From: Raja brachyura
Lineage: Eukaryota
NCBI GenBank assembly: GCA_963514005.1
Contig: OY740785.1
Span: 34,100,001 to 34,164,000, forward strand
Direction: 5' to 3'
Length of the DNA: 64,000 bases
The stretch's first letter is position 1. Each line of letters opens with the position of its first letter. The translations under genes and the position numbers were made by a program. This document shows, in pieces, positions 5,921-61,179 of the stretch. The notes beneath the pieces are model-generated. The model searched no databases, was not told the origin of the DNA, and saw nothing but the letters and a program-made list of their open reading frames with translations.

Positions 5921-6284
5921 TTGCATATTCAAGATACTTACATTTTAATCAGATGAGCATTATACACAAAAGAGATAATAAAGTAAGTGAAAGAGTATTC
6001 TAGTGATGATGTTGGCTAAACGGTGTACAATTTTATTTCTGTAGTTGTCGGAGGATGACTAAATGCAATAGGGCAGAACAGCTGGTCTTGAAGGGTGACC
6101 TGACGCTGGGACAAGAGCTGGAGTTTAAAGACTCTGTGAAGATCATGGGCTGTGTAACCAAAAAAAATGGGTAGAGCAATTGAGTAGTTAGAGTGGGGAA
6201 TTAAGTTCTTAGCATCGGCGTACACCAGATCTATGGACAAAAGTCCAATGTTCACAACGGGCTAGAGATGAATCGGATAGTATC

Positions 6285-6500: not shown

Positions 6501-6568
6501 GATGGGAGCATTTATTGGCCTCGGAGACCAAATGTTTAAATTAACATCCAAGCCTTGCATCTTATTGT

Positions 6569-6771
6569 GTACGAAGGAACTACAGATGCTGGTTTAAACC
6601 GAAGATAGACAGAAAAAGTTGAAGTAACTCAGTGGGTCAGGCAGCAACTCTGGAGAAAAGGAATAGGTGACATTTTGGGTCAAAACCCTTCTTCAGACTG
6701 AAGAAGGGTATCGACCCAAAACGTCACATATTCCATTTCTCCAGAGATGCTGCCTGACCCACTGAGTTACT
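6569..6771. mobile_element. Palindromic Penelope-pLTR-derived short element (two inverted hammerhead arms)
   Basis: Arms meet at cttcag-a-ctgaag (centre 6697). 16-bp TSD ccttgcatcttattgt at 6553-6568 and 6772-6787. Confidence 0.85.
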
Positions 6772-8302
6772 CCTTGCATCTTATTGTCACTCTTTGAATA
6801 TTTTGCAGGTTAGTTATATATTATTGCATTTTCTCAGTTCCAGAAGGAAAAGCTGGTGGAAACTGAATAATGGTGTTTAAAATTCTGATGCTAATATAAA
6901 AATAGTTTGCATAGCAGAAAGCTGAAGCTGCATTCCCTCCCTGACTCCATTATATATAAAGTTACATAACGTTCTTTGGCACAGGAATGCTGATTCAACA
7001 GGGAAAAATATCAGTGATTTTGCCATTGTATACTATATTATCATTGTGGAAAATTCATACAAGTAGGGTGGGACCCACATCCCTGGGGCAGGGAAGAACT
7101 GGCTTCATTGTAAGCAATGCTCCTTTTGCTTCATCGAACAAACCGCATTGTAAGTTGTGAATGTATCCTACCATTCTGAATGAAGGAAGCTTTGTTTTGT
7201 GTACTTTGGGGGACTGGATGCCATTCAACTCATTTTTGGGTGTTCGGGGGATCTTTGGAAGAATTGGTTACTTCATTAGTGCAATCTATGTGACCTGCCC
7301 AAGGACCGTCCTGTTTAAATGTCCACTGTGTTTACACGAGTAGAGTATTTAATTGCCCTGTGCACTGACGATGGAACAATCAAATCGTTACTTGCAGCAG
7401 CATAACCGGCCTGTAAACTCAATACCCTTAAATAATATAATAATAAACATAAAAATTCAAATTAATAAAATTCAAACCAGTGCAAAAATCCCAAAGTCCT
7501 TAGTGTAATAAAAGACAGTCCATGCAATATCATGGTTGTTTTGTGGTATTCAAAAGCCCAATGTTGAGAAGAAGCTCTTCATGAACCTGGTGATCACTGT
7601 TTTGTCAAACTGCCCTACCAGCTTCCCAGGAGTGAAATGAGAGTGTGAGCAGCATGGTGTGGGTCTTTGATATTGGCTGCCATTTTGAGGTAGCACCTCT
7701 TGTAGGTATGTCAACTCAGTCTGCCTTCATTATGTTAAATTGGTTGGGATTGGAATACAATATTGAGCTTGAATTAATTGATTTAAATACGCACAGAATT
7801 TGCAGATTATCATGGTTTTTTTTGCTCAATCTGCAATCTTTTATTGCCTAATCCGCAAGAATTGCCACTTTTCATTTCACTGCACATCTCGTATGCGTAT
7901 GTGACAAATAAACTTGACTTGGTATTGGGGCTCAATTGAGACCACCGAGATGTTTGAAAAATTGGAGAGTGTCCAATGTAATGCCAGTATATGAAAAAGG
8001 AAACAGCTGATCGAGGCAATTACAAGTCAATTAGCTTGACATTTTTACGGTTGCAGAGGAAAAAAAGAGGAATCAATTAAAATCAAGTCAGATAAAGAGA
8101 AATAAAAGTATTTACTTGGACATCAGTATTACTTGATGAACCTTGTGGAATGGTGAGCAGTGGTAAAAGTCAGAGTAGATGAGAGAAATTCACTAGTTAA
8201 GAATGAGTAGGGGCTGTTTAGGCCCCTTTAATCTTTTGCACCATTCAATGAAATTAAGACTGACCTTTGACCGTAGTTTATAAATGTGGTTTAACATCTT
8301 TA

Positions 8303-11092: not shown

Positions 11093-11541
11093 GGGGGGGG
11101 AAAGCAGGAACGGGGTATTGATGCTGGAGTAACTCAGCAGGACATGCAGCATCTCTGGAGAGAATGAATGGTTGACTTTTCTGGTCGAGACCCTTCTTCA
11201 GACCTTCCTCAAATTAGGAGACCAAAATTGCACACAATACACCAGGTATGGTCTCACCAGGGGTCTGTACAACTGCAGTAGGACCTCCTTGCTCCTAAAC
11301 TCACATCCTCTCGCAATGAAGGCTAACGTGCCATTAGCTTTCTTCACTGCCTGCTGCACCTGAGTGCTTACTTTCGTTGACTGATGTACAAGCACGGCCA
11401 GGTCCCCTTTTCCTAATCTGACACCATTCAGTCTGAAGAAGGGTCTCGCCTCGAAACGCCACCCATTCCTTCTCTCCAGAGATGCTGCCTGTCCCGCTGA
11501 GTTACCCCAGCATTTTGCTTCGATCTTTGGTTTAAACCTCA
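11093..11541. mobile_element. Composite: inverted pLTR/hammerhead arms enclosing a minus-strand CR1 RT fragment
   Basis: Left arm about 11120-11203, CR1 piece about 11204-11429, right arm about 11430-11538. Possible short TSD tgatat (11087-11092, 11542-11547). Confidence 0.7.
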
Positions 11542-13360: not shown

Positions 13361-13408
13361 AGGAAATATAGGCTGGTTGGCAAAAGCGTTGATAAAGAGA
13401 CTAATTAA

Positions 13409-13636
13409 AGGGCCTGTCCCACTTTCATGACCTAATTCACAACCTTTTTTACTCGTGGATATTTTTCATCATGCTAGAAAAAACGCCCCGACCTACTTGA
13501 TGCCACGAGTACCTACGACTAGCATCACAACCTCCTACGACCTACCTACGACCTTGTGACAACCATGCTGCGAGTACGAGTCAAAGGCAAACTCGGCAGA
13601 GGTCGTATATTAGGTCGTGAAAGTGTGACAGGCCCT
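13409..13636. mobile_element. PIF/Harbinger-like MITE
   Basis: TIRs agggcctgtcccactttcatgacctaat / attaggtcgtgaaagtgtgacaggccct; TSD TAA. Confidence 0.85.
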
Positions 13637-13728
13637 TAACTCTTGTAAACAATAGGCTGCTAACAAGCTCGGGGACTTTGAGGATGGCTCAAAAACAAGT
13701 TAATGAGGAATAACAGGCAGTTCGTGAA

Positions 13729-13844
13729 CTGCAGATGCTGGAAAAATCGAAGGTAGCAAAAAATGCTGGAGAAACTCAGCAGGTGAGGCAGCATCTATGG
13801 AGAGAAGGAATAGGCGACATTTCGGGTCGAGACCTTTCTTCTAC
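13729..13844 (-). mobile_element. pLTR-derived short element with TSD
   Basis: 11-bp TSD cagttcgtgaa (13718-13728, 13845-13855); hammerhead remnant on the minus strand. Confidence 0.75.
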
Positions 13845-14569: not shown

Positions 14570-14742
14570 AGATAGATATGAAATGCTGGAGTAACTCAAA
14601 GGGTCAGGCAGCATCTCGGGAGAAAAGGAATAGATGACGTTAGTCGAGAGCCTTCTTCGGAGGACCCAAAATGGCCCCCGTCAAATAATCCATCTCGACC
14701 CGGAATGTCACGTATACCTTTTCTCCAGAGATGCTGCCTGAT
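14570..14742. mobile_element. Inverted pLTR arms with a short spacer
   Basis: tcaggcagcatctcgggagaaaagg inverted to ccttttctccagagatgctgcctga. Confidence 0.6.
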
Positions 14743-17649: not shown

Positions 17650-17959
17650 GCACTGCAGATGCTGCAGAACTGCAGATGCTGTTTTAAATCTGGATTTAAG
17701 AGAGAGTTGGCACTAGCTCTAGGGGCTAGTGGAGTCCAGGGATATGGGGAGAAGGCAGGCACGGGTTATTGATAGGAGACGATCAGCCATGATCATGTTG
17801 AATGGCGGTGCTGGCTCCAAGGTCCGAATGGCCGCCTCCTGCACCTATTTTCTATGTTTCTACAGAAAGAAGAAGGGTTTCGACCCGAAACGTCACCCAT
17901 CCCCACTCTCCAGAGATGCTGCCTGTCCCACTGAATCACTCCACCATTTTGTGTCTATC
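17650..17959. mobile_element. Composite: pLTR stub + CR1 3' tail + hammerhead arm within one TSD
   Basis: 13-bp TSD ttggaaattaaat (17637-17649, 17960-17972). CR1 tail about 17692-17862; gaagaagggtttcgacccgaaacgtc near 17870-17894. Confidence 0.75.
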
Positions 17960-19321: not shown

Positions 19322-22300
19322 ATTCAGACAGCTTGGAGTTCACTCATGCAGGGGACAATGACTTTCCTCCAAGCTGCAAAAGACTCAAGACTGAAAAGGA
19401 CCCCCAGGTAGGCGTGGAGGCAGTGGGTCACCAAGAAGAATCTCCTGCTAGGCTGCCCAATGTGGCCAGACACCGTCATGATGCTTCCTTTCGACAAACG
19501 AATGGCTTTGTGAATCACAGCCATCTGGAGGCAAGCGTAGAAGTTATGCTGGAGGAAGACTGCGGTTTTGAGGAATCTTCCTTGTATTGTGAAAGGCTTA
19601 GCAAAACCAAACTGCCGGATGATGGGAAACTCTACAAATGTTCCTACTGTAACTACACAACTGACCAGTCAGACAAATTGAAGCATCATTTCCTGATTCA
19701 CGAAGGCCAGAAGGCTTCAAGGAACGTCACTGCACCTGACGGATTGGAAGCCCAGCCACAGAAAAAGTCTTACAAATGCACCTACTGTCATTTTGCCTGT
19801 GATCATATGATCACCTTAACGCGACACAAGAGGCAGCACATGAGCAAACCTTTAATGGATAAAAAAGGGAGCACTGGTTCTAAGAAACCTGTTCCCTCTC
19901 AGGCAGACTCTGACAAGACCACCATGGAAAGTGAAAAGAAGTTTTACAATTGCTCATATTGCAATTATACATCATATTTGATGGGGAATCTACAGCGCCA
20001 CATCCGTATCCACCTTGGAGAAAAGCCCTTCAAGTGTGACCAGTGCTACTATGCAACTGGCCAGTCAGGAAACTTGAAGCGTCACAAACTAACTCATACA
20101 CAGAAACGGTCTTACTCTTGTAACCAGTGTGACTATGCATCTGGTCAGATGGGCAATCTCAAACGACATATGCTGACGCACTCACGGAAAAAGTGCTTCA
20201 AATGCAGCCAGTGTGAATACGAAGGGGAAAGTATGGCTGACTTAATGAGGCACAAACAAAACCACAAGGATGACAACATTTTCTTGCAAAACAATGAGAC
20301 AGACACAACTGCATTAAACAAGAATGATGAAGAGAAGTCTTATAAGTGTTTGTATTGTAGCTATGCCTCGCCACTGTTGGGGAACCTCCAGCGACACATG
20401 CGTATCCACCTCGGAAAAAAGCCCTTCAGGTGCGACAAATGTGATTATTCCTCCTGTCAGACGGGGAACCTGAAACGCCACAAGCTGACGCACACACGTG
20501 AGAGAATTTTTAAATGCCGCCAGTGTGGCCACATCTGCAGTAACTTAATAGATTTAAAACGGCACAAAGCGACTCACTTAAAGGATAAGCCCTTACAAGA
20601 TGAGGAAAAAGCTCCAGAGAACAAGCGAGGTGTCGGCGATGAAGTCTCAGCCCTTACTCCCAAGCAAGCTGAAATGGGCACTGGGGATAAAAAGCCTTAC
20701 GAATGTTCGTATTGTGATTACACGTCGTTATTGTTGGGAAACCTCCAAAGGCACACTCGCATTCATCTTGGAGAGAAGCCCTTCAAATGCGACCAATGTG
20801 ACTATGCAACCTATCAGTCTGGGCACCTCAAGAGGCACAGACAGACACACGTGCACAAAAGATCACTGAGGTGCCGCTTTTGTGAATATGTCTGTGGGAA
20901 TGTGAGAGAAGTAAAGCAGCACCAACAAGAGCACACCAAGAAAACTGGAAGCGGAGACAAGAAGCCTTTCAAATGCACACACTGCAATTATGTGTCTTCT
21001 TTATCAGGGAACCTGCAACGGCACATCCGTATCCACTTGGGAGAAAAACCCTTTAAATGTGACCAATGCGAATATGCATCCCACCAGTCAGGAAATCTCA
21101 AGCGTCACATATTAACTCATTCTCGGCCCAAGTCCTTCAAATGTGGCATCTGCTACTGTACCTGCAGCAGCGCTGCGGGGCTAAAGGAACACAAGGAGAA
21201 TCACATCAAGAAAGAATTTCTGGTGCAGGACGACGAGGATGGGATTGGGAAAACCCAGGAGCGTTATTCCTGCAAGCTGTGTAGCTTTGTCTCAGAATAT
21301 CCCGGTCATCTCATGCGCCACATGAAAACTCACAACTCGGAGAAGCCATACAAGTGTCACTACTGTGCATATGCGACAGTACAACAGGGCAATCTGAAAC
21401 GGCACATATTAATCCACACTGGGGAAAAGCCCTTCCAGTGCGACGAATGTAGTTATACCTGTAGCCGGATGGAGAATTTGAAACGGCACAAGCAAATCCA
21501 TGTGGAAAATACATTCCCGGAAGAAGGGGAAGGCAGCAGTTCACTGAAATCCAAGATACTCTTTCCTTGTGAAGTGTGCAACTTTAAAGCCCAGTACCCC
21601 AGCATCCTTGCAAGGCACATGAAAGCTCACACAGATGAGGCAGGGAAAACAGAGGGGGCCGAAAGTGTCTGCCCAGATGAAAAGCCCTTTCGGTGTGACC
21701 AGTGCTCCTACTGTACCTGCAGTACGACCAGCTGGAAGGAGCATTTGCAGAGCCATGTGGACGGTGCAATAGCACAAGAGTGCAAGGAAGAAAGCAACAC
21801 TGAAAATGCCCCAAAGCATTTTTCTTGCAATCTGTGTGACTTCATCACCAAAGACCCCGAGGACTTAATGAGACACATAAAAATCCACAGCACAGGCTCT
21901 GCACCCGGTGATCCCCACACCCCTTCCACTGGGGTACCTACATGTCAAAGTAGTGAGAACATCTTCTCTTGCAAGTTGTGCAATTTTGTTACACAGTACC
22001 CCAACCACTTCATAATGCACATGAAAATGCACATGAAAACTCACACCACGAACAATAGTGAATACCAGTGTTCCCATTGCAACTATACCACCAAGCAAAG
22101 TGGGAACTTTAAGCGCCATATCCAGGTTCACTTGGGTGTAAAGCCATATAAATGTAAAAAGTGCGACTATGCTTCAATTAATTTTGCAAACTTGAAGCGG
22201 CACTTGCAGACCCATATGAAAGAAACATCTAACCAAATCAATCGCCCCTCTTCTGATACTGTTGATCAGGCACAAAAGGACATAAAAAAGGAGAAAGATG

Positions 22301-22947
22301 ATAATGTAGATTCGCAGGAAGGTAGCTCTGAAAATAATGACAAACCTCCCAGCTGTGCTTCAAGACATTTAAAACGGAAGAGGCAGCATAAATGTCCCCA
22401 TTGCTCATACAAGACCATCGAGCTGGGGAACCTCAACAGACACGTCAGGAGTCACAGAGGAGACAAACCCTTTAAATGCACTCAGTGTAACTATGCTTCC
22501 ACCCAAATGGTCAACGTCAAACGACACCTTCTAACGCACACGGGAAAGAGGTTCTACCAGTGCACGGAGTGCGAGTTTCTGTGCGAGGGCAAGGTGGCCT
22601 TTAAACTGCACAAGCAGAATCATACGGCAAGTTTAGAGATAAAGAAGGAAGGGGAGGATGAGAATGGCCTTGGCAAAGAACAGAAATTCTTCTCTTGCGA
22701 GTTGTGCAATTTTGTCTCTCAGTACCAGAGCAACCTCATCAGACACATGAACATACACAACTACAGGAGGCCATACAAATGCTCACAGTGTAACTACGTC
22801 TCTGCCCAACAGGGCAATCTGAAGCGACACATGAGGAACCATCTGCAGAGAGAAACCTTCCAATGTGAACAGTGCAACTATTCGTGTGCTTCCATGACCA
22901 ATCTCAAACGACATGCCAGGGTTCATACAAGTCCAATTGTGCAATAA
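19322..22947 (+). CDS. Large terminal coding exon of a 30-finger C2H2 zinc-finger protein, ZNF513-like (upstream exon(s) not identified)
   Basis: The 1215-aa ORF has 30 C-x2-C-x12-H-x3-H motifs and HLGEKPF/HTGEKPF linkers. Acceptor gtgttgtttttcatttgcag ends at 19321 (phase 1); stop TAA 22945-22947. The triplet SCKLCSFVSEYPGHLMRHMKTH / YATVQQGNLKRH / YTCSRMENLKRH resembles ZNF513 fingers as I recall them. The gene is convergent with SNX17, as ZNF513 is in mammals. Confidence 0.92.
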
Positions 22948-24174: not shown

Positions 24175-24440
24175 ATGTAGAAACGAGGAACTGCAGATGC
24201 TGGCTTACAAAAAAAGAGACAAAGTGCAGGAGTAACTCAATAGGTCAGGCAGCATCCCTAGTTTGGTGAAGTGTTCGGTCAGGACCCTTCTCAGACCGTG
24301 GGGAGGGAAAGAAAGCGAGATAAAAGCCTTGCTTTCTTCGCCCCACCGTCACCATCAGACTGAAAAACGGTCCCTACTGAAATGTTCTCCACGGATGCTG
24401 ACTGAGCTGAATTACCCCAGCACTTTGTGCGGTTTTTTAA
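24175..24440. mobile_element. Degenerate inverted pLTR arms
   Basis: gaactgcagatgctgg...gacccttctcagac on the left and actgaaaaacggtccc...gatgctg...taccccagc on the right. Confidence 0.55.
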
Positions 24441-25426: not shown

Positions 25427-26483
25427 TCTATATTACTTAAAGTCTGATCTTGACCACTTCCTGTTTTGTCTATTGATTTTAGAAAAAACACTGCCACTTA
25501 CAACTGTGATTTTTGGCCATCTTACTCGGAATCCCCCTCCGCTGTGCAGGACAAGAGGATTTTTCCCATCGATGAAAAGTCAGAGTTATTGGTGTTTAAA
25601 AAATGTTGAGATTCTCTCTCCTGAAGGCCACGCCCCTTCCGGAGGGACTATAAAACCCAGAAGTGTTGAGTGCCTCAGTCAGTCTCTGCAAGATGGGGGA
25701 GCGAGAGGGTCACATCTCTGTCTGAGCTGTGAATCAACTGAATACACTGAATGTCTACTGAACTGTGAGTGTGGTGTTTGTGGTTTTATGGTGGTTTCAC
25801 CCTGCTTGAAATGGGATGAAACTGCATTTGAATGTGCTGGCGTTGCACCCTGCATGAAATGGTATGAAACTGCATTTGAAATTGGTGGCCTTGCACCTTG
25901 CATGAAATGGTATGAAACTGCATTTGAATTTGGTTGCCTTGCACCCTGCTTGAAGTGGTAGGAAACTGCACTTGAATTTGGTGGCCTTGCACCCTGCTTG
26001 ATGTGGTCGGAAACTGCACTTGAATTTGGTGTCCTTGCACCCTGCTTGAAGTGGTAGGAAACTACACTTGAATTTGGTGGCTTTGCACCCTGCTTGAAGT
26101 GGTAAGAAACTGCACTTGAATTTGGTGGCCTTGCACCCTGCTTGAAATGGTTGGAAACTGCATTTGAATTTGGTGGCCTTGCACCTTGCTTGAAATGGAA
26201 TTTCAAGGAGTAGCCGTGAGGCAGCTGCCATCACATCAGGCCTGAGTGACTGAGCTGCCACCGCAAGAGTCCATTTGGCCTGCAATGTCCATACCAGCCC
26301 TCTGGAAACCAGCCCCTTCAGCCCACAATACCCATACTAGCGCTTCAGAAAGCCCCCCCCCCCCCCCCCACCACTGGCCACCAATATTGGAATTGGTGGA
26401 GAGGTGGAGTATTGCGTTGGGGGACCAGCCCTCCCATGTGAGCATGGGACCCAACGGGACCCAACGGGTCCCACTTAGTCTGG
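25427..26483 (+). mobile_element. Non-autonomous Helitron with internal minisatellite
   Basis: 5' end TCTATATTACT follows an A. 3' hairpin gggaccc-aac-gggtccc, then acttagt-CTGG (CTRR) followed by T. No TSD. Confidence 0.78.
25798..26198. repeat. 48-bp minisatellite, about 8.3 copies
   Basis: Unit ccctgcttgaa(a/g)tggtaggaaactgca(c/t)ttgaatttggtggccttgca; gives 16-aa periodic spurious ORFs. Confidence 0.92.
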
Positions 26484-28012: not shown

Positions 28013-28604
28013 CACACGGGTGTATATATATACACATGTATATATGTATATAGTGTTAAAGAAGGAACTGCAGATGCTGGAGAATCGAGGGTTACACAAA
28101 AAGCTGGAGAAACTCAGCGGGTGCAGCAGCATCTAAGGAGTGAAGGAGATAGGCGACGTTTCGGGTCGAGACCCTTCTTCAGACTATATGTATATATGTG
28201 TATATATATATATGTACGTGTGTATATATGTATATGTTTTTGTGTATATATATGCATACATGTGTACGTGCATACATACATGTGTACGTGCATACATACA
28301 TGTGTACGTGCATACATACATGTGTACGTGCATACATACATGTGTACGTGCATACATACATGTGTACGTGCATACATACATGTGTGCGTACATACATGTG
28401 TACATGCATACATGCATGTGTACATGCATATATAGATGCATATATATGTATGTGTATACGCATATATATGTGTATGTATATGTGGGTGTATGTATGTGTG
28501 TGGGTGTATGTATATATGTATGTGGATGTGTATGTGCACATACATATACATGTGTATGTGTATATGTATACATATACATGTATACATGTGTGTGCGCGCG
28601 TGTA
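28013..28604. repeat. Purine-pyrimidine (TA/TG/CA) microsatellite with a 20-bp tandem unit catacatacatgtgtacgtg (about 6 copies, 28255-28385)
   Basis: Directly visible. Confidence 0.92.
28052..28185 (-). mobile_element. Young pLTR fragment with intact hammerhead, inserted in a microsatellite
   Basis: Near-identical reverse complement of 37555-37688. Confidence 0.85.
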
Positions 28605-29115: not shown

Positions 29116-30384
29116 TCAGGGTAGGCAAGGTACCGTCAGGGTAGGCAAGGTAGGCACTGCCTACCCTGACTAAAATTATAACATAGTAATAACTAAATAT
29201 AAATAATAAAGGCATGGGAGAATTATGCCTATGTAAGAGATCGATCTCTTAGGTAGGCATAATTCTCTGTGCCTTTCATCCGCAGCGCTTGTAGGACGGG
29301 AAGGTCTGTGCAGCCCACGTGCCGTCAGCGTTGCCTGAAGCCGTCAGTTTCAAGCGGGGCTGAGGGCAGCAGAAATTCTGCCTTTGCAGCACTGCGCATG
29401 CGCAGCGCAGGTTTCGTGGCGGGGTTTTCAAATATGGATTGTCAATATTTTAAGTGTATGTTAGGTAACAAAGAGAGAAGAATGGAGTTTGTGTACCAAT
29501 AATGTGGTAAGTACATTTTGTGTTTATGTTTTTAAATACCGTATTTCCCGGGGTGTGGGGGTGGGGGGGGGAGAGCTCCTTTCACAGCGTTTGGCGAGTC
29601 TGGCACGGGGTAAAGTTGCAGGAAGGGCACGAATGTTATGAATGAGGGGATTGGGATAATGCCACTTGCGACGCTCCTTGCACGGAGGCATGTAATGACA
29701 AGGCATTGAGGCCGGGGGGGGGGAGGAGGAGAGAGAGAAGTAGCCCGGGTGGCTGAGCGGCCGCCAGCTTAGCTCCTTCTGCCGGTCCCCGCTCACCTCT
29801 GGCAGCTCTCTGTCTAAAAACCTCTCTCCTGTCGCTCGCTTGCCTCGCTCATGTCCTTAAATTCCGACAGCGCGATTGAGGTTACTCGGCTGTGGGAATT
29901 TAAGGATTTTCAGGAAGCCGCTGACTTGAGTGAAGTCGGCGAATGGCAGGTAACAGGTGTTCCGACGGAGAGCACTGCCAAAGGTGAGCGGGCCGGCAGA
30001 AGGCGCTGAAGTAGCGGCCAGTTCTGCTGTCGGGTCCCAGTGGCCGCTGGCAGCTCCCCGAACTGCTTCTATTCCCAGCTACAGTGCATGGCTTCGCGCC
30101 CGGAGAGCTGCGATAGCGGTGAGTGAGTTACTAGCAATATCCCTAACACCCTCCTTCTCAACACTCGTGCCCTCCCCACAACTTTACCCCTGGCACAGAC
30201 TCTCCACACGCTGTGAAAGGAACTGTTCCCCCAATTTGTCTAGGACTAGGAAGCCTAGGAAGGGCAAATTGAAATGTCACTTTTTAAATTTATTTATTTA
30301 TTTAGCGGAGATAACAATCTGCGCATGTGCGGTTCAATTTTTTTTCAAAGCGGACTGAGTGCCTACCCTGAGTAATTACTCACG
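29116..30384. mobile_element. CpG-rich non-autonomous DNA transposon-like element (hAT-like subterminal hairpin or Helitron body; class uncertain)
   Basis: Left hairpin gtcagggtaggca...tgcctaccctgac; right end tgcctaccctgag next to the gap; 50-bp internal palindrome. Confidence 0.5.
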
Positions 30385-31519: not shown

Positions 31520-32319
31520 TTTACTTTAGGTTGGAGATGTATCACGGAAACAGGCCCTTTGGCCCACCAAGTCTGCACCGACCATGATCTGTGTACTGTA
31601 ACACTGTGCTACACATCAGGGACAATTAGCAATTTTTACCAAAGCCACTTAATCCTACAAACCTATACGTCTGGAGTGTATGAGGAAACCCACGCAGTCA
31701 AAGGGAGAACCTATAAACTCCATACAGACAGTACCGGTAGTCAAGATCGAATCCGGGTCACTGGCGCTGTAAAGGGCCTGTCCTACCAGCATCCGACTCC
31801 ATGCGATGAGCGTGATCAAACTAGAAGCGGGGGCCGCGCGGAGGTTGGGTGATTCCCTGTACAGGGCCGTTCCCACCAGCATGCGCCTGCATGCGGCAAG
31901 CGCGACCAAACCGGCAGTGAGGGCCGCGCGGAGGTCGGGTTAGTGGCGCAATGCAGCGCAAAGTGAGGCGAAGTCTTAAGGTAAGCTCGCCAGGACAGAG
32001 AGGGGCACAGAGGGCCACGGAGCCACACACATAGAGGGTCACGGAGGCACGACGTGGAGACGGTGTGTAATGCGTCGAGGCGACTGCGAGCCGACAAGCC
32101 GTTGCCGTGCGGAATTTTTGAACATAGTTTTTCGGAGCCCCGCGCGATGTCGGGACGAACTCCGCACAATTCCGCACGGCTCCGGCGATCGAAGTGGGAC
32201 CGGCCCCGCGAAGCCGGACGGCTCAAGCGACCACGTTAGGTCGCGCTCATCGCATAGAGTTGCATGCTGGTGGGACAGGCCCTTAAGGCAATAACTCTAC
32301 CGCTGCTATACCGTGCCGC
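31520..32319 (-). mobile_element. HE1-type SINE split by a MITE
   Basis: SINE body 31520-31772 and head 32284-32319. Confidence 0.78.
31773..32283. mobile_element. PIF/Harbinger-like MITE inserted in a SINE
   Basis: TIRs of about 40 bp (agggcctgtcctaccagcat... / ...atgctggtgggacaggccct); TSD TAA. It splits the SINE motif gcgctg-taa-ggca. Confidence 0.85.
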
Positions 32320-34451: not shown

Positions 34452-34568
34452 TAGACACAAAATGCTGGAGTAACTTAGCGGGACAGGCAGCATCTCTGGT
34501 GAGAGAAAGAATGGGTGATGTTTCGGGTTAAGACCCTTCTTCTGGTGACGTTTCAGGTTGAGACCCTG
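34452..34568 (-). mobile_element. pLTR-derived short repeat with tandemly duplicated hammerhead segment
   Basis: ggtgatgtttcgggttaagaccc followed by ggtgacgtttcaggttgagaccc. Confidence 0.6.
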
Positions 34569-34777
34569 CACGTCGAGAAATTGCAGTCTCTTGCCGTTTA
34601 GATTATGTCTTTTTACAATTTCTTATCCAGAATTGGGTAGATGCATACTCTTGCCCAGAGTAGGGGAATTGAGGACCAGAGGACATAGGTTCAATTTAAC
34701 AAGCTGCCAGATGAGGTAGTTGAGGCTGGGACTACCCCAACATTTAAGAAACAGTTAGATGGGGGCATGGATAATGG

Positions 34778-34909
34778 GTAAGAAGGAACTGCAGATGCTG
34801 GTTTTATCTGAAGATAGACACAAAATGCTTGAGTAACTCAGCAGGACAGGCAGCATTTCTGGAGGGAAGGAATGGGTGATGTTTCGGGTCGAGACCTTTC
34901 TTCAGACTG
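34778..34909 (-). mobile_element. pLTR-derived short repeat inserted in a CR1 3' fragment
   Basis: gaaggaactgcagatgctgg...gtttcgggtcgagacctttcttcagact. Confidence 0.7.
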
Positions 34910-35854
34910 GTACATCGATAGGACAGGTTTAGAGCGATATGGACCAAGCTCAGGCAGGTGGGACTAGTGTGGCTGGGCAGGTTGGGCCTGTTTCCACACT
35001 GTATCACTGACTCTAATGAGGAATTTGCCATCCTTTGCCTGCCTATCTAACCTACCTATTGATTTGTAGCTTCATTTTTGTCCTCTTGGCAACTTGCTTT
35101 CCTACCTTGTGTCATCAGCACATTTAGCAACTAATCCTTCAGTCAGATAGTGAGCACGGTCAAACAGCCAGGCAACACAAAAGCAGGTCCTTCAGCCCAT
35201 TTTGCCCAAGTTGGGATACTGGGCTAGTCTTATTTTCCTGCATTTGGCTGATAGCCCTCCGAATCCTTCTTATTCATACATCTGTCCAAAAGTCTTTTAA
35301 AAGCCATAATTGTATCCATTTCTATAATTTCCGCTGGCAGCTCGATATTGAAATGGTTGCTATTGCCATTTTTGATGACACCTTTAAAAACATTTCCATT
35401 TCCCATGCACTGAAGTGAACCTGGTTCCTCGCACCTTTAACCTAACTCTGAATTAGAGGAGCCAATGAGTGGGGACTTTGATATGTAATCTGAACTATTC
35501 CAGTGTTGGCTTCCCGTCTATGAAGCTCTGCTCAAGTTGGCTGTGATCGAGGAAATGATAAAGCATATCACTGCCTTATTGGAAAATGCCAAGAATGCCA
35601 GTGGTTTGCCCAACATCCTCCCTCAATCAAAAATAAATCATCCTAGTATCCATTTAATTCTGGGTTTTAATTAAGGAATTTCACCAATTTTTGCAGAATT
35701 GGTGAAATTGGTCAGTATTGTTGTAATTAAATTAATATCTCTGTGAACCCAATGGAGAATGGAAATTCTGTTGAATGCACTAAACATCTCTGGTGCTTTC
35801 CTACAGAATTAATTCAGGGGGATTTCGACTTTTCAAATTTTAAAGTTTAGAAAC

Positions 35855-36436
35855 CATAGGAAAGATTTACGAGGATGTTGCCAAGACCCGAAGGCTTGCA
35901 CTATAAGGAGAGGTTGGGCAGACTAAGACATTACTCATTGGATTGTTGGAGGATGCGAGGGAATCTTATAAAGGTGTATGATGGAACCAGATAGAGTTAT
36001 TTTAATCAGAGATAGGTAATCAAGAACCAGAAGATATAGGTCTAAGGTGAGAGTTGATAGGAATCCGAGGGGCAACTTTTTATTTATTTTTACACACAGA
36101 GGATGGTGGGTATATAGAATGAGCAGCCAGAGACAGCACAGTGGTGCAGCTGTAGAGTTGCTGCCTCACACCGCCAGAAACCTCAGGAGCTGTCTAAACT
36201 GAGTTTGTACGTTCTCCCTGTGACCGTGTGGGTTTTCTCTAGGTGCTCTAGTTTCCTCCCACACTTCAAAGAGGTACAGGTTTGTAGGTTAATTGGCTTT
36301 GGTAAATTTGTAAATTGCCCCTAGTGCGCGTAAGGGTTGATCACTGCTCGGTGTGGACTCAGTGGGCACAAAGGGACTGTTTCCATGCTGTATCTCCAAA
36401 GTCTAAAATCCAAATGAGGTAGTTGGAGGAAACTAT
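35855..36436 (+). mobile_element. Old CR1 3' fragment (split by a SINE and the DIRS; continues at 44771-44930)
   Basis: gaggtagtt...actat|aacaacatttaacagacatttggacaagtacatggatagg is continuous across the DIRS. Confidence 0.7.
36131..36410 (+). mobile_element. HE1-type SINE
   Basis: gcacagtggtgcagctgtagagttgctgcc, V-domain, tail. Confidence 0.8.
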
Positions 36437-36658
36437 AATAGTAAGATTAAACAAGAACTTACCAGTTTGAAGTTTGATCTTTATTTTATGAGGAGTTACT
36501 ATGAGGGATTACGTGAAGAGCCCGTCAGCCCGCATGCGCGTCAATCTTCAAAGCAGCGGTGTGAAGTCACAGACAGCAATAGTTGACCTGAGAATAGTAA
36601 GATTTGAGGAACTAGAACTACCAGCTGAGTTTTATGAGGAGGGGTTGGGAGCGGAGGG

Positions 36659-36770
36659 CACGTAATCCCTCATCGTAACTCCTCATAAAATAAAGATCAA
36701 ACTTCATACTGGTAAGTTCTCGTTTAATCTTACTATTTTACTTCGGAGTCACGCGAGTGACTACGTGAAG
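36659..36770 (-). repeat. DIRS internal complementary region (ICR)
   Basis: 36659-36737 is the reverse complement of the left terminus (about 36437-36515). It is followed directly by tttacttcggagtca(c/t)g(c/t)gagtgactacgtga, the reverse complement of the right terminus ending at 44770. Confidence 0.9.
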
Positions 36771-36929: not shown

Positions 36930-37423
36930 CTACCCGAGAGGGACTATAAACCCGAACTTAAAACTGAGTTCGCAAACACACTTGGTCTGGCTAAGGGTTT
37001 GTTTGTTATAGAACGTCTGAAATGTATGTTCTGAGGACCATCCTGCGGCCGACAGAATCTGGTCTAGCGGAACATCCATGCCACTAGCTGCGGACATAGC
37101 TGCAGCCCTGGTGAAATGAGATTTAAACATTTCAGTATCAACCTCAGCATCCGCCAGAACCTGTTTTAACCACCTGGAAATGGTCTGAGCTGAAACCCTC
37201 TTATGCGGTTTCTTGAGGCTAATAAATAATGCTAACTCAGACCCCCTAAGCCCCTTGGTGATATTGATGTATTGCTGCAGGTGAGTGACTACACATAATT
37301 TGGGATCCAAGGGGTAGGCCATGAATTGTAACTTTAAACCCAAAGTACCTGGTTTACTCTGTTTAATAGGGTCGTACACAAAAAAAGGTGATACCACTGC
37401 CAGAAGTGAGCATCCTATCTAGA
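36930..37423 (-). pseudogene. DIRS tyrosine recombinase, C-terminal part
   Basis: ORF 36930-37397 contains LCVV..L..Y, TISRWLK, HFTRAAA (HxxR), AAGWS and FQTFY catalytic-type motifs. Confidence 0.85.
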
Positions 37424-37557
37424 CGTAGCTTCTGCAACACAGCTTACAATGGCCCGTTTCCCTTATCATCAATACTTTTTTGCATATCTTTCATTCATTG
37501 TTCTTTATCTCTCCACATCACTGTTTATATCTCTCCTTTCACTGATCCCTGACCAGT

Positions 37558-37585
37558 CTGAAGAAGGGTCTCGACCCGAAACGTC
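37558..37585 (+). ncRNA. Minimal type I hammerhead ribozyme motif in the 5' pLTR
   Basis: CTGAAGA-A-GGGT(CTCG)ACCC-GAAAC-GTC: conserved core, stem II, palindromic stem III and GUC cleavage triplet. Such motifs are established in Penelope-like pLTRs. Confidence 0.8.
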
Positions 37586-37720
37586 GCCTATCTCCTTCGC
37601 CCCTTAGATGCTGCTGCACCCGCTGAGTTTCTCCAGCTTTTTGTGTAACCCTCGATTCTCCAGCATCTGCAGTTCCTTCTTTAACACTTTGTCTACTCCA
37701 CTGCGATATCTCCTCAAGGT

Positions 37721-40700
37721 ATGCCTACTTTGAAGAAGTTCTCCTCCTCCCTACGAAGACAGTTTCACAACCTCCTCTCTAACTGCTCCCCCTCTGTGAT
37801 ACCCCCTTCCCTCCAACTCTATGACCACAACCTCACCCAGACTCGATACCACAGCCACATCTGCTTCCTCGGGGCCTGCCTGCGTCTCCATCTCATACCT
37901 CGTGGATTCTAGCTCCAATTCCCTGCCTCCCAGTTCGGACCCCAGCCGGACTATCGGTACCGACTGGCCATCCGCCGCCACACTGTGCAATTCTCCAACC
38001 GGGCATTAAGATCCACCCTGGTTGCAATGCGCCGGCACCAGCAGGACCTCGCATTGACTCTCCCGAATCTTCGGGCCTCACTTACCCAGACCTGCAACGG
38101 ACCCCAACTACACTACATCCTTCGGAAGATCCACCCCTTCAATCAACAATTCCTGTCCCACCTTACCTCCACCAAGGACCTGAAATTAGCCCGCCTCCAG
38201 GCCGTTCCAGCTACCGACAATCCCCGACTCGACCGCCCGCAGGCCCCGGGCGCCAACTCTGGCCCGAGCCACCGGCCTGATTCCCCCGACGCCATCTTGG
38301 TCACAAGGAGCGCCTCCAGGACGCCGCCTTCACCGACCTCCACGCCGATGCTGCCGCCGACCTCCACCTGCCTACCGATGACGCCCAGCCCCGCCGCCTG
38401 CCTGGTAACTCTGTTTATCTCACCCTCCCCGATTCCACCGCCCATCTCCAGCTCAACTCGACCGCCGAACCTTGCCGCCCGCCGGGACCACCTACCCTCA
38501 TCGCCGCACCGGGCCCATCCAGCATCGCCGTTGTACTGGGCCCGCCGAAGACCAGAGCCGCACCCGCCTCACCTTGCATCGCCGCCGGACCGGGGCCCCT
38601 GAACATGGCCGCCCGCCGCACCCCACTCCTCTCGCCGCCTCACCGGGCGGGCTGAACCTTGCCGCCACACCGACCACTCGCCCACCGGGACCACCCACGC
38701 ATCGCCCGCCGACCCCGACTCCACTGCCCGCGGACTCCTACCTTCGGGCCCGCCGACCCACGACACTCCACCGCCCTCCAGCAGCCCGCTGGCGTCGCCT
38801 CACCTACAGACTGGACTGTGCAGCGGGCCTGAAGCCTCCACGTTGCTCACTCCTCCCACCACTCTGTTGTTAACGGAACTGGGTCCTAGTGCCCGTCTCC
38901 CCAGCCCCGGTGACCTCAGTAGCTATTCCACTGGGTCTTCCCCATCCCCCTCCTACCATGTAACCCCTGCTCTTTCCCACCCACACCGCAGCCCCCATAC
39001 CCCCCCCACCCCCTGACCACCTTCCACCCCGCCACCACACAACGCTCCGTCCTCAGTCCACTCACCTGCCTTCCTCCAGCCACAACCCCCATCCCTGCCG
39101 CGTGTTCACCATCCCCCGGACCTCCCCCTCTCCGACACCGAAAGGTCGGTCCTCAGCAGAGGTCTTACCTTTGTTCCCCTCCGTCCCCACCTCAATGAGT
39201 TCCGCGCCCACCACGACTTGGAGCTCTTCTACCGTCGCCTCCGCCTCACAGCGTTCTTTCACGGGAACAAGTCCTCGCCCCCCAGTGATGATCCTTTTTC
39301 CTGTCTCCCACGTACCCCCTCTTCGTGGACCCCCCCTCGTGACCCTCCAGCTTTAGAACTCTTTATTCAGAACTGCCGTCGGGACATCAACCGCCTCGAC
39401 TTCTCCACTCCCCTGTCTCACTCCAATCTCTCCCCCTCCGAACGCACTGCCATCGACTCACTCCGCAACAACCCAGACTGGGTTATCAAACCCGCCAACA
39501 AGGGAGGTGCTGTGGTAGTCTGGCGCGTCGATCTCTACAAAGCAGAGGCCACGCGCCAACTCTCGGACACCTCCTCCTACTTACCCCTGGACCATGACCC
39601 CACTGACGAGCACCAGGCCACCATCTCGAGCACCATAACTGACTTCATCAACTCCAGCTCCCTACCCCCCCGAGCCTCCAACCTCATCGTTTCCCAGCCC
39701 CGCACAGCCCGATTTTACCTTCTCCCCAAAATCCACAAACCCGACTGCCCCGGCAGACCCATTGTCTCTGCCTGTTCGTGCCCCACCGAACACATTTCCA
39801 CATACCTTGACTCCATCCTATCCCCCTTTGTTAAATCCATCCCCACCTATGTTCAAGACACCTCAGACACTCTCCGTCGGCTCCGCACATTCCGTTGTCC
39901 AGGCCCCCATCCTCTCATTTTCACCATGGACGTCCAGTCACTATACACCTGCATCCCCCACCAGGATGGTCTCAAAGCCCTCCGGTACTTCCTCGACCAG
40001 AGGAGCAACCCATACCCGTCCACTGACACCCTCCTCCGCCTAGCGGAGTTGGTCCTTACCCTCAACAACTTCTCTTTTGACTCCTCCCATTTCCTCCAAA
40101 CACAAGGCGTAGCTATGGGCACACACATGGGCCCTAGCTACGCCTGCCTCTTTGTCGGGCACGTCGAACAATCTTTGTTCTCGGCGTACCAGGGCCCCAC
40201 CCCCGATTTTACCTCCGTTACATTGACGACTGCTTTGGTGTCACTTCCTGCACCCACGCACAACTGACTGACTTCATCCATTTCACCACCAACTTCCATC
40301 CGGCACTCAAATATACTTGGACCATTTCCGAAATTTCCCTACCATTCCTTGACCTCACCATCTCTATTGCAGGTGATACACTCCTGACTGACATCCACTA
40401 CAAACCAACTGACTCCCACAGCGACCTGGACTACTCTTCCTCCCACCCTGCTTCCTGTAAGGACTCCATCCCCTATTCCCAATTCCTCCGTCTACGCCGC
40501 ATCTGCTCCCAGGATGACGTGTTCCACACCAGGTCATCCCAAATGTCCTCGTTCTTCAGAGAACGGGGTTTCCCCTCCCCCACTATAAATGAGGCTCGCA
40601 CCAGGGTCTCCTCCATACCCCGCAACACTGCCCTCTCTCCCCATTTCCCCGCTCACAACAAGGGCCGAGTCCCCCTGGTCTTCACCTTTCACCCCACCAG

Positions 40701-41282
40701 CCAGCGCATACAACAGATAGTCCTCCGCCAGTTTCGCCACCTCCACGTGACCCCTCCACTCGCCACATCTTCCCATCTCCCCCCCTGTCTGCCTTCCGCA
40801 AAGACCGCTCCCTCCGCAACTCCCTTGTCAATTCTTCCCTTCCCTCCCGCTCCACTCCTTCCCCGGGCACTTTCCCTTGCAACCGCAAGAGATGCTACAC
40901 TTGTCCCTTCACCTCCCCCATCCACTCCTTTCAGGGACCCAAGCAGTCATTCCAAGTCCGACAGAGGTTCACCTGCACCTCCTCCAACCTCATCTACTGC
41001 ATCCGTTGCTCCAGATGCCAGCTGATCTACATCGGTGAGACCAAGCGGAGGCTGGGCGATCGTTTCGCCGAACACCTCCGCTCGGTCCGCAATAACCAAC
41101 CCGACCTCCCGGTGGCTCAGCACTTCAACTCCCCCTCCCATTCCATATCCGACCTCTCGGTCCTGGGCCTCCTCCACGGCCAGAGTGAGCAACACCGCAA
41201 GTTGGAGGAACAGCACCTCATATTCCGCTTCGGGAGTCTGCATCCTCTAGGCTTAAACATTGAATTTTCTCAATTCTGTTAA
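37721..41282 (+). pseudogene. Penelope RT + GIY-YIG endonuclease ORF (premature stop, frameshifts)
   Basis: Starts MPTLKKF. RT motifs IKPANKGGAVVV, FYLLPKIHK..CPGRPIVS, TMDVQSLYT, GVAMG, and RYIDD near 40216. Cys linker CNRKRCYTC. Endonuclease LIYCIRC..C...YIGET.R.L..RF.EH...VAQHF...E...I...GLN; TAA 41280-41282. Confidence 0.9.
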
Positions 41283-41512
41283 CCCAGACTGCCCCCACCC
41301 CTCCCCACCTCTCCCTCAGCCCTCGGGCTCTGACATTCCTTCTCTATCTCCCCCCCTCCCCAGTCGCACTAGCCTCTCATTTTCACACCACAAACAGCTT
41401 ACAATGGCCTGTTTCCCTTATCATCAATACTTTTTTGCATATCTTTCATTCATTGTTCTTTATCTCTCCACATCACTGTTTATATCTCTCCTTTCCCTGA
41501 TCCCTGACCAGT

Positions 41513-41540
41513 CTGAAGAAGGGTCTCGACCCGAAACGTC
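41513..41540 (+). ncRNA. Minimal type I hammerhead ribozyme motif in the 3' pLTR
   Basis: Identical ctgaagaagggtctcgacccgaaacgtc. Confidence 0.8.
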
Positions 41541-41607
41541 GCCTATCTCCTTCGCCCCTTAGATGCTGCTGCACCCGCTGAGTTTCTCCAGCTTTTTGTG
41601 TAACCCC

Positions 41608-42116
41608 CGTAGCTTCTGCAACGACTGGACCCATTGAGATGACACTAGAGCCATGAGCATGGCCACCTTGTATGTGAGCCGAAGTAGAGACAGGGATGCT
41701 GCTGGAGACCATGAGCGAAGCAGAGTTAGGACCACCCCTACATCCCAAATTTCCGTGTATCTGGGCCTAGGAGGGTTTGAATTAAAGCCTCCCCTCATGA
41801 ACCTCGATACTAAAGGATGAGACCCCACAGGCTGGTGTCCTGAACTCGGCAGCAAGTATGACGACAGCGCACTTCTGGCACAATTTAGGGCACTGTAGCT
41901 TAATTTCTCATCAAAATGCAGTTTTGAGAGGAACTCCAAAACATCAGTAATGTGCGCTGCGGCATACGAGATATCGGACTGCGCACAGAACGCTTCCCAT
42001 TTCCTTATGGAGGAGGCGTATTGTTTTTGGGTACTGCTTCTCCAGGCCACAGTTAGCACATCCACCGTGCGATCAGCTAGTCCCAGTCCGAGGAAAGATC
42101 TTCTTAAAACCTGCAA
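41608..42116 (-). pseudogene. DIRS tyrosine recombinase, N-terminal part (truncated by the Penelope insertion)
   Basis: STQKQYASSIRKW, LSYSALNCARSALS, HPLVSRFMRG..N.NPPRPRY..IWDV..VL and LMALVSSQWVQSLQKL are typical of DIRS YR. Confidence 0.85.
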
Positions 42117-43400
42117 ACCAATAAGTTCAGCTGATCATGCAGAGGATGTACTTCCCCAGAAATGGGATGAGTTAACAGAGACCTGACCAGGATGAGAGGA
42201 TACCATGGCTGAGTGGGCCAGTCAGGGACTACCAGAATGCCGGAGGCAGAGTCCTGCTGAATTTTTTGCAGACATCGATTGACAAGGCAGAATGGGAGGA
42301 ATGCATAGAAAAACATTCCTCCCCAATGTAGTGAGAAGGCATCTATCGCTACTGCCCCTGGGTCTGGTTCCCATGCAACATACTTCGGTAACTGATGATT
42401 TCATCTCAAAGCAAACAAATCCATATCCGGTGTTCCATACCTAGACAATATCCTTAAACACTCTATGATTCAACATTCATTCTGTGTTGTCATTGAATTT
42501 ACATGACCTGGTGTCCACCACCGTGTTGAACCTACCTCGAAGGTAATTAGCTGAAACCCAAATATTCCTAATGATACACCAGTGCCAAATGAGGTTAGCC
42601 AATTTATCACAGGATACTGACTTGATTCCACCCATGTGATTTATGTATGCCACCGCTGTGGTGTTATCTATCTGTAATTGAGCATGCAGATGGTGCAATA
42701 TGCCTGCAATAAGCCTTCAGACCTTCAGACCTTCAGACTTCAGTGCTGCGAGCAACTCCAAATAGTTAATGCCATGCACCTGCAGAAAGGATAGCTCATG
42801 CATATCCCATCTGCCACCGCAGCTAGAAACGGTGTCAGTGGCGCCCCATCCCAGAGCACGGGCAGCAGTCTGTAAAAGAACAGAAGGACTTTTGATCTAA
42901 ATATTGCGAGAACAATGCAAAATACTGGCTTTCCACCACTGCAGCTCAGCAACAGCTTCAGCCGGTAATTGCATAGCCCAAATTGTGTTTAAGTGCCTGC
43001 ACCTTTGCTCTTTGTAATTGCTGATAGTGCAAAGGTTCATATTTAGCAGCAAATTGGTGAGGTTCATGATTCGTTTTTTCAATTACCTGAAATTCATATA
43101 ATGCCTGAATTTCATCCTGAACCTCCAAACCATCCTGTTGTGAACGAACAAAGGTACAGTTTGGAGCATGCTGTGTGGGTGGCAGTGAACCAGAAAACTC
43201 AATTTCAAACCCATATATACTGCGCAGTATGAACAAATCAGACGTTATCCACCGCCATTCATGCAAAAAGAAACATAACCTCCCACCAACATGCAATAGA
43301 CCCATACCGCTTATGTTCCATGGCGAACCAGACCCACCTACCTCCGTGGTTATTGGTGGATTCTTGATGTTTATTTCCTCCCCCAATGTTTGGGGGGAAT
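42104..43400 (-). pseudogene. DIRS RT/RNase H/methyltransferase-like ORF remnant (frameshifts; RT core apparently deleted near 43055)
   Basis: Fragments VGGRL.FF..EW.WITSD.FIL..I.G..IEF, ELQWW, DNTTAVAYINHMGG and YAFLPF..V.R.L.KI..D...ILVVPDWPTQPWYP. Confidence 0.75.
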
Positions 43401-43495
43401 GAGGTGCTGGAGTGCACCAGTTGCGCATCTTTGATGTTGGCCGGCTTGGGCCATGTCCTAAAAAAGACTTCCGGCCAGTTCTTTCGGTCCTTGAG

Positions 43496-44580
43496 CTAGA
43501 GGTGGTTTCCGCAGACCGTTTGGTTTTGGTAGAGGCATTGGGGTGCTGCCGTCGAAATGACACAGGTCTGTTCGCTGGTGGAAGCCGAAGTAGCCCCCAC
43601 AGCCTTCGACTCGTCGTCCAGGTCCTTCACTTGTTTGGACAGGTCTTCTCCAAATAAATAATTGGGAGGCTGCACATTACTGGACCTGCAACCCTGCAAA
43701 CTTGGGGTTGAGGACAGGACGAATGGCATTCTTGCGAAAGCAATTTATTTCAAAGTGTGCATTGCACAACAATGCCATTGCATCCCGTTGCGCCTCAGAT
43801 AGGGAGCTGACATCTACTGACCTGGCGAATGCTGTCACCCCCGATGCCAGCAGTTTCAGGATCCTCTGTAATTTGACCTCTTGGGACTTAATGCCCCCAC
43901 CAATGTAGCTCCAAATGGAACTATTCACAGCCAGTACCTTAAGGGAGGCGCAGTTGCTGGGCGTGTGGTACTTCATGACCATCTCCATCATTACCTGCTC
44001 TTGAAGCTGGTGAGAAGCGAGGTAATTAATACTGGCCGCTAGCTCTTCGTCCAGCGGCTTCCCGACCAGCGACGGCATTGCAAACTTAGAGACCATGGTT
44101 GGTACCTCTGCTTCTCACGGGTCCCGTGTTGTGAGACGTTCCACCGGCATCTCACTCAAATGAAAGTCCGCCCAGGACTGATGGCCTATGCTCCTATCCT
44201 CGGATAGGGAGATATAATGCAGCCCTGCACCAGGTGCTGCTGCGGGCCCCAGAGACCCGCTCTGATATGACTCCCCACTGTGGAGTATATCATGTTCGAG
44301 CACCTTCTCCATAAGATGCTCCACTCGGAAAAGATGAAGACGCTCCCCGCTACAGGAGGCGAACCCTCCCAGCCGGACTCATCCGAGTCAACCAGCCTGT
44401 TGGACTTGTACTTGGCCTTCCCGACCCGCGGGGTAGCCAGTGCACCGAGTCCGTAGTCGCTGGCTGAGCTGTCAGCGACCACGATGGTGAAATGGATGGC
44501 CGCCCGCTGACCGCACTCCCGCGGTCTTCCGAAGCGGTTCTCCCTGCGGACCATCGAGACTTCACCCTTGCCTTATCCAT
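43496..44580 (-). pseudogene. DIRS gag-like ORF1 remnant (frameshifted)
   Basis: Consecutive partial ORFs (KYHTPSNCASLKV..VN..IW; FRKNAIRPVLNPKFAGL; YLFGEDLSKQVKDL) upstream of the RT, in the element's orientation. Confidence 0.65.
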
Positions 44581-45111: not shown

Positions 45112-45222
45112 AGGTAGACACAAAATGCTGGAGTAACTCAGTGGGACAGGCAGCATCTCTGGAAAGAAGGAATGGGTGACGTTTCAGGTCGAGACCCTTC
45201 TTCAGACTGATGTCCAAAGGAA
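45112..45222 (-). mobile_element. pLTR-derived short repeat with TSD
   Basis: Flanked by the direct repeat aataaaggaaaa; contains gacgtttcaggtcgagacccttcttcagact. Confidence 0.7.
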
Positions 45223-47794: not shown

Positions 47795-47812
47795 TGATGT
47801 TTCGGGTCGAGA

Positions 47813-61077: not shown

Positions 61078-61179
61078 GTAGGAAGGAACAGCAGATGCAT
61101 GGCCGCATGCTACACAACCTCATTGCTCCACCAACTGCATAGATTCTGCATGGAAATATGATTCCCTCTTTGTTACACA

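Follow-up and report, generated by a model that had tools for sequence, protein, structure and literature searches.

Penelope-like retrotransposons (PLEs) are known to leave complex insertions that combine an inverted, 5'-truncated pseudo-LTR (pLTR), a one-sided tail of 30-40 bp and a target-site duplication (TSD), as described for Pen2/Pen2a of Adineta vaga in the portions of PMC3846280 that we consulted, and a general scheme of inverted-pLTR insertions is laid out in extracts of PMC8557442. In the same partial accounts, a palindrome at the inverted-pLTR junction is interpreted as the result of self-priming on an antisense template (PMC3846280; PMC8557442). Minimal hammerheads were found by Cervera and De la Pena mostly as single, dispersed motifs, but also as pairs on opposite strands (PMC4209133), such pairs lying 100-700 bp apart in Schistosoma, and they are reported to cleave barely on their own. 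For PAc, a PLE of Anolis carolinensis, the available parts of PMC11167929 describe internal priming, a tail that lies between two start sites and uncut RNA as the main substrate, with cleavage requiring protein. The building of PLE pseudo-LTRs, inverted arms and tails is still unsettled, and the literature that we judged by title and beginning of the abstract contained nothing on a twin-priming mechanism or a cap signature in PLEs. Our literature search also found no paper on a Penelope-like hammerhead SINE family in sharks or rays; a curated Repbase or Dfam entry may exist.

Here, we analysed a stretch of 64,000 nucleotides (the window, to which all positions refer) and found that 6553-6787 is a single insertion with a duplicated target, derived from that end of a Penelope-like retrotransposon which carries the hammerhead and the tail. 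An exact 16-bp TSD (6553-6568 and 6772-6787, plus strand) bounds an insert of 203 bp, while a TSD score of at least 14 was reached by only 1 of 294 random placements. For the description of the copies we set +1 at A37555 of a full element in the same window, an initiator-like site and the inferred RNA start; on this scale the hammerhead core occupies +4 to +31, the pLTR ends at about +93 and the tail at about +134. The main arm (6569-6699, minus strand) represents element positions +1 to +131 and comprises hammerhead, pLTR end and tail, and the inverted arm (6698-6771, plus strand) extends to +77, lacks the tail and shares a 2-nt microhomology with the right TSD. A reading made earlier from the letters alone (hereafter the sequence-only reading) had described this copy as a head-to-head hairpin with a stem of about 75 bp centred on 6697 inside a 16-bp TSD, and we recovered both: the hairpin arms (6623-6696 and 6698-6771) measure 74 nt each and are 92% complementary, with 6 mismatches in 74 positions and a 1-nt gap. 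The centre common to both arms (6695-6699) is self-complementary save for one central mismatch, and its unpaired base, 6697, agrees with the main-arm template and not with that of the inverted arm. The predicted RNA fold has an energy of -128.3 kcal/mol (z -16.5), equalled by 0 of 200 shuffles. An inverted, shorter pLTR at the 5' end, a one-sided tail and a TSD are what characterises PLE insertions, and we consider it very probable that the structure is an integration product made when the element landed. None of the 6 arm mismatches is compensated, the arms diverge by 8% and no sign of selection was seen, and we take the copy to be a likely dead remnant, one that would fold into a long hairpin within the pre-mRNA of the host.

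Related copies are frequent in the window. A search with the 28-nt core allowing up to 3 mismatches gave 9 matches compared with 0 in 100 shuffles, and a profile built from ten window copies returned 25 arms compared with 0 in the reversed window; with 2 pieces added by BLAST or by eye, 27 pLTR-derived arms could be aligned at 19 loci (18 short, 1 full). The proposal of at least 15 copies derived from a hammerhead-bearing Penelope pLTR and its tail is thereby borne out, and the second of the two origins suggested for them, very truncated or short insertions, fits. A TSD search at 20 placements gave 6 exact duplications of at least 11 bp, one unreliable call in a (TA)n tract, one chance-level 8-mer and 12 without a TSD, a score of 11 being reached by 4 of 294 random placements. 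All the other TSDs named in the sequence-only reading for short copies, i.e. those at 13718 (11 bp), 17637 (13 bp), 45096 (12 bp) and 49868 (14 bp), are exact. Three of these belong to single arms on the minus strand: 13729-13844 (about +6 to +120), 45108-45221 (about -5 to +97) and 49882-49992 (with an internal deletion and a tail, its TSD overlapping the 5' end of the arm). Further single arms on the minus strand are found at 34776-34911 (with tail, about -3 to +127, TSD search negative), at 34452-34567 (+6 to +94, with a stuttered partial hammerhead ahead of it) and, within a (TA)n tract, at 28052-28186 (+1 to +134). The last shares 98.5% identity with the full element across 134 nt and belongs to the same subfamily, and therefore protein-coding subfamilies shed short copies directly.

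Head-to-head arrangements occur at 6 of the 18 short loci and a gap-free palindrome at only one of the 18, 6553 itself, and the description of the family as often palindromic was overstated. A TSD surrounds the pair at just two of the six. The second of these, at 17650-17959, joins a tail piece (+99 to +123) and an arm (+6 to +96) on either side of a piece of another repeat. The remaining pairs lie at 725-834 (+41 to +89 with +53 to +103, inner ends at +41 and +53, without hammerhead core or TSD), at 11121-11538 (+2 to +84 with -1 to +109, flanking 225 bp of another repeat, without TSD and possibly two events), at 14570-14741 (+3 to +97 and +15 to +62, with a spacer of about 31 nt) and at 24186-24438 (an old pair whose arms reach upstream of +1). 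The pieces enclosed between head-to-head arms at 11204-11428 and 17700-17862 come from other abundant repeats, and the composite at 17650-17959, lying wholly within one 13-bp TSD, results from a switch of the template to another RNA, or else from an insertion that came later. A GC-rich, promoter-like island (60900-61800) harbours a decayed pLTR arm (about 61638-61728). The window also holds MITE-like elements with terminal inverted repeats of 38-85 nt (13408-13637, 29607-30190, 31772-32284 and 36431-36743) and a tandem repeat with units of about 60 bp (25679-26336), visible as repetitive reading frames.

The catalytic boxes and helix II that mark a minimal hammerhead are present in the family, the core being intact in 6 of the 27 arms, 2 of which are in the full element. 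G12 is the catalytic base of the hammerhead. This conserved base is replaced by A in both arms at 6553, i.e. in the main-arm core (6669-6696, minus strand), where the 15.2 base is altered as well, and in the inverted-arm core (6698-6725, plus strand), and neither has the core of a minimal hammerhead. Within the hairpin, stem II has a predicted pairing probability below 1e-11 on both strands. Consequently, with both cores carrying the G12 change and buried in the hairpin, the view that palindromic copies encode a hammerhead on both strands does not hold for this copy. Stem II is predicted not to form even in an intact single arm, a prediction that agrees with the weak cleavage reported for minimal hammerheads and with the use of uncut RNA by the anole PLE. 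Rfam gave 0 matches at gathering score across the whole window and no hammerhead family at E values up to 10 for the intact pLTR, and neither viral nor metagenome contigs contained a match to the core pattern. In the arms at 24188 and 54362, small deletions shifted the alignment on which the core was called automatically; both cores are broken regardless. Two arms (45720-45788 and 57543-57616) begin at +29 to +33, at or near the predicted cut site after the GUC that ends at +31, which may be a weak hint of cleavage.

The full-length element (37439-41607, plus strand) is flanked by an exact 15-bp TSD (37424-37438 and 41608-41622), just as the sequence-only reading had it, and sits inside a tyrosine-recombinase (DIRS-like) element. 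It shows the organisation of an EN+ PLE, i.e. an RT followed by a C-terminal GIY-YIG domain, direct pLTRs with hammerhead and a TSD. The GIY-YIG domain has a Pfam E value of 2.6e-4, slightly short of the curated cut-off, two cysteines lie between the GIY and YIG boxes with histidines downstream (CCHH motif), and a CX4CxxC linker precedes the EN. Neptune elements are defined, in the sections of PMC8557442 available to us, by a CX2-5CxxC linker zinc finger, absent in Penelope/Poseidon, together with a C-terminal EN, and by these motif definitions the element would be assigned to the EN+ PLEs of Neptune type. Its pLTRs are 98.6% identical over 215 nt and both retain an intact core: the stretch reproduced by the short copies (37555-37688, plus strand) includes the core at 37558-37585, the pLTR end at about 37647 and the tail end at about 37688, and the 3' pLTR (41394-41607, plus strand) has its core at 41513-41540 and lacks the tail. 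The ORF starts with an ATG at 37721, after the tail. A single intact ORF is absent: there is a stop at 37910, and three different frames hold RT, thumb and endonuclease, so that in its present state the element is not autonomous. Furthermore, its pLTR shares 78-79% identity with the 6553 arms over +4 to +77, and the element, which belongs to a different subfamily, is a relative and not the parent of the 6553 copy. The suggestion that it is the autonomous partner of the short copy thus fails on both counts.

The tyrosine-recombinase gene that the full PLE splits is on the minus strand (36933-37418 and 41562-43626), with Pfam matches to Phage_integrase (E 1.5e-5) and Phage_int_SAM_4 (E 1.3e-5) and with retroelement-like frames upstream (DIRS-like). 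In the predicted fold of 37555-37690, the first 14 or so bases of the PLE pair with the tail end, competing with hammerhead stem II; such pairing, which may be a coincidental match of purines with pyrimidines, would place the priming site next to the inferred RNA start.

One way to account for so many short copies is that the palindrome, or the single arm of about 130 nt, constitutes a SINE-like or retrozyme-like non-autonomous family, with transcription of the entire unit and copying of it by the PLE enzyme, an independent amplification that the sequence-only reading had also put forward. Indeed, the segment is extremely abundant in four related samples and the single arms cluster by size, and there are precedents, since non-LTR retrozymes are proposed to derive from PLE pLTRs (bioRxiv 10.64898/2026.07.22.740005) and non-autonomous PLE derivatives are known in Chlamydomonas (PMC8557442), each according to the parts of these reports available to us. 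However, recurrent identical arm junctions had been named as the sign of such amplification, and in this window the six head-to-head pairs have six junction sets, none common to two, and no shared boundaries and internal junction of the sort a SINE-like palindromic unit would have, a count that rests on 18 short loci in one window of 64,000 nt. Tandem arrays, which define non-LTR retrozymes, were not seen either: none of the 27 mapped arms forms head-to-tail units with complete hammerheads, a single partial stutter at 34452-34567 being the nearest case. Together with the loss of the core in most arms, the predicted failure of stem II on both strands of the palindrome and the fact that the copies track protein-coding subfamilies, these observations make amplification as a unit improbable in our view. 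A palindromic subfamily outside the window and the re-copying of some single arms are possible. As the centre coincides with a point at which single arms naturally stop as well, amplification would not be proven by copies having it in common; only a shared outer end together with shared variants would do.

That natural stopping point is seen in the 5' ends. Sixteen arms reach the 5' edge of the hammerhead, and 13 of them end between about -7 and +7, near A37555, the other three extending further upstream; the 5' ends are spread over about 14 nt. When contigs of the related samples were aligned to 37436-37915 at 90% likeness, summed contig depth, which we do not take as copy number, rose several-fold near +1 and, in three large runs, dropped about tenfold past the tail. 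The loose ends before 37554 have a pyrimidine-rich consensus resembling the upstream pLTR of other subfamilies, and the step at +1 is for this reason partly an effect of the 90% threshold. Among the joints with letters in between, all 12 listed of 629 go back to 37554-37560, and in 5 of these 12, leaving from four different jump-off points, G or AG stands directly before 37555, as a cap-templated base would give. All five come from a single run (X9) and could represent one amplified variant or a subfamily base at -1, and none of the single-arm copies in the window has a G before +1. The +1 site fits the initiator pattern. The sequence there is compatible with a splice acceptor as well, and it is at the 5' edge of the hammerhead that the pLTR intron of D. 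virilis terminates.

We believe that the short copies are likely run-off cDNAs from the start of the RNA. A cDNA primed at the tail would reach the 5' end of the RNA after about 130 nt and run off at this size, which would explain the similar sizes of many single arms without a SINE. Tentatively, this may be extended to a scheme in which, in Neptune-type PLEs, a 'strong-stop' cDNA of 90-135 nt, primed at the pLTR end or the tail close to the capped 5' terminus of the RNA, has to jump to the 3' end of that RNA before a full copy can arise, although we think such a step rather doubtful. Failed jumps might then leave the short copies, jumps onto the same region the stutters with a cap-derived G, and jumps onto the own cDNA the palindromes, a set of assignments that we consider somewhat improbable. 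On the same speculative footing, the full element, with its 5' pLTR piece, a body from +1 and a closing +1 to +93, could be the outcome of two successful jumps. If true, the scheme, which resembles the first step of retroviruses, would unite the partial tandems, inverted pLTRs and tails of PLEs and make them readable from genomic junctions.

For the mirror arm at 6553, the account that we prefer has it built during integration: having run off where the element RNA starts, the first cDNA would fold back on itself. According to the literature on another PLE, the enzyme would nick the target and begin reverse transcription inside an uncut RNA, at two sites that bound the tail. If the RNA starts near +1, priming at the tail would give a short run-off cDNA of about 130 nt, the last base of which could pair back over a 3-nt loop, so that the enzyme would copy its own cDNA. 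The second overhang of the target, similar in sequence to +78 to +93, might then anneal with the new strand, and the TSD would be completed by repair. The product expected is the unit seen, a main arm of +1 to +131 and an inverted arm to +77 within a 16-bp TSD, the arms having since drifted apart with 6 mismatches, 0 compensated, and both G12 changed. Fold-back predicts the centre as observed, arms that are nearly identical and an outer end that is free and attached through microhomology: the unpaired central base follows the tail arm, the two arms are each other's closest relatives in the window (92% identity, versus at most 88% to the other short copies), and the inverted arm ends away from both usual 3' ends. 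DNA folding showed no stable hairpin at the run-off end, and among contigs aligned to 37436-37915 no opposite-strand joint occurs in the 15 listed of 144 joints. We give fold-back roughly an even chance of being how the mirror arm arose.

Alternatively, both target nicks could have primed cDNAs, the first at the tail and the second at +77, where the overhang would have paired in part with the RNA; both would have extended as far as the start of the RNA and been joined by their self-complementary last five bases. In the excerpts of PMC11167929, the protein of the anole PLE is a predicted dimer that in vitro both cleaves the two strands and extends them, and at 6553 both the likeness of the right TSD to +78 to +93 (a post hoc P of 0.025 for this junction) and the self-complementary centre with its one central mismatch suit such a course. 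However, the inverted arm lies off both common 3' ends, and under priming from both nicks it would more often end at +93 or +131; a centre base that follows the tail arm has even odds here and is certain under fold-back; and the best duplex predicted for the two run-off ends does not have the register that the joint calls for. Two near-identical RNAs, or a single RNA read twice, would also be required. We regard two-sided priming as a serious candidate, if on balance somewhat improbable. Folding energies do not separate the two, and the target sequences say little more. At the TSD junctions at 6568, 6772, 13728, 17960, 41608 and 45107, the target adjoining the 3' end of the element shares 2-4 nt, and sometimes, on looser matching, about 10, with the sequence that continues the element; overall, such microhomology was found at 6 of 8 junctions, with a combined P of 0.18 for strict and 0.002 for loose calls, and it lacks robustness, since a mismatch had to be skipped at two of the junctions. 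The shared bases would suggest homology-assisted priming, with the same reservation. On a practical matter, one can read from the short, very abundant stumps where the enzyme started and stopped, and a genome-wide count of their junctions could tell fold-back from two-sided priming as well as put the strong-stop scheme to the test.

The palindrome lies about 380 nt into the intron that follows the upstream coding exon (6045-6171, plus strand, edges from splice signals) of a host C2H2 zinc-finger gene, the large coding exon of which lies at 19322-22947 (plus strand). The N-terminus of a shark homolog matches 6067-6150 in the upstream exon (E 1.2e-5) and the large exon from 19324. The gene encodes about 1,250 aa, nearly all of its coding sequence being in one 3.6-kb exon, and our search returned only two close homologs (ray 71%, shark 61%), the others being far weaker. 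The RT region of the full element likewise has homologs of up to 74% identity in rays and sharks, and since rays and sharks provide the best homologs for the RT as well as for the host gene, the host is a cartilaginous fish. Of the earlier remark on double-stranded RNA in introns, the location can now be given, as the palindrome lies in the intron of the zinc-finger gene, and folding into dsRNA there is plausible.

Such a location raises the possibility that the host keeps the hairpin as an intronic regulatory RNA of the zinc-finger gene, i.e. as an editing substrate, a small-RNA precursor or a splice modulator. Besides the closeness to the exon and the stable fold, contigs from organisms A, B and E might be taken to speak for this, as they start 25-26 letters inside the inverted arm and continue through the right flank (with 33 differences in 914 letters in E). 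These 25-26 letters are below the bar of 31 letters for a bridging contig, and they hint that the insertion is old and probably shared among the three organisms. An empty site, which would appear as a skip of 219, is not among the 15 listed of 2749 joints, and opposite-strand joints on the 6553 reference are uninformative, the reference itself being a palindrome. Against a host role, the 6 uncompensated mismatches and the 8% divergence of the arms are as drift would give, and the Rfam microRNA matches are far below gathering scores; we consider such a role very improbable. A microRNA identity of the hairpin was also considered and rejected, the Rfam matches being generic to any long hairpin. 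At 47137-48475, a near-palindrome of 1.3 kb whose inverted arms, nested around a 16-nt centre, measure 414 nt (88%) and 242 nt (93%), and which apparently comes from the 3' region of a LINE (CR1/L2-like), would form a much longer intramolecular duplex than the 6553 palindrome. More generally, PLE stumps supply introns with long hairpins in large numbers, and RNA editing in cartilaginous fish could conceivably be affected.

Both the structure and the motif have already been published for PLEs, and the 6553 copy is a known by-product. With the described minimal hammerheads the family shares the catalytic boxes, the extra base between 9 and 10.1, the G10.1-C11.1 pair, palindromic 15.2/16.2 positions, the lack of a real helix III and the occurrence as mostly single, dispersed motifs; it differs from them in what appears to be a helix II of 4-5 bp and a helix I of 2 bp in most copies, and the 6553 copy in the change of G12 to A in both cores. 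Non-LTR retrozymes, to judge from the consulted parts of PMC7229834 and bioRxiv 10.64898/2026.07.22.740005, have likewise a type I hammerhead, are non-coding and pLTR-related and occur in a chondrichthyan genome, but they form head-to-tail tandem units of about 150-450 bp with a hammerhead in each and give rise to monomeric RNA in linear and circular form, whereas the copies described here are single or head-to-head, have TSDs and mostly broken cores. Compared with PAc, a Poseidon element, as portrayed in the excerpts of PMC11167929, the genomic 3' ends fall similarly at two places bounding the tail and the copies contain the uncut hammerhead. The clade is a different one, with a CX4CxxC linker that is absent in Penelope/Poseidon, the ORF starts after the tail (37721), and several junctions show short target-element microhomology, whereas PAc priming is reported as non-homologous. 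The closest likeness is to the insertions of Pen2/Pen2a as given in the available account: in contrast to these, the 6553 copy has no ORF between its arms (203 bp in all), a TSD of 16 bp instead of 8-10 bp and a junction at the 5' edge of the hammerhead, but it has in common with them the head-to-head arms with the inverted one shorter, the one-sided tail, the overlap or palindrome at the junction and the TSD around the whole unit.
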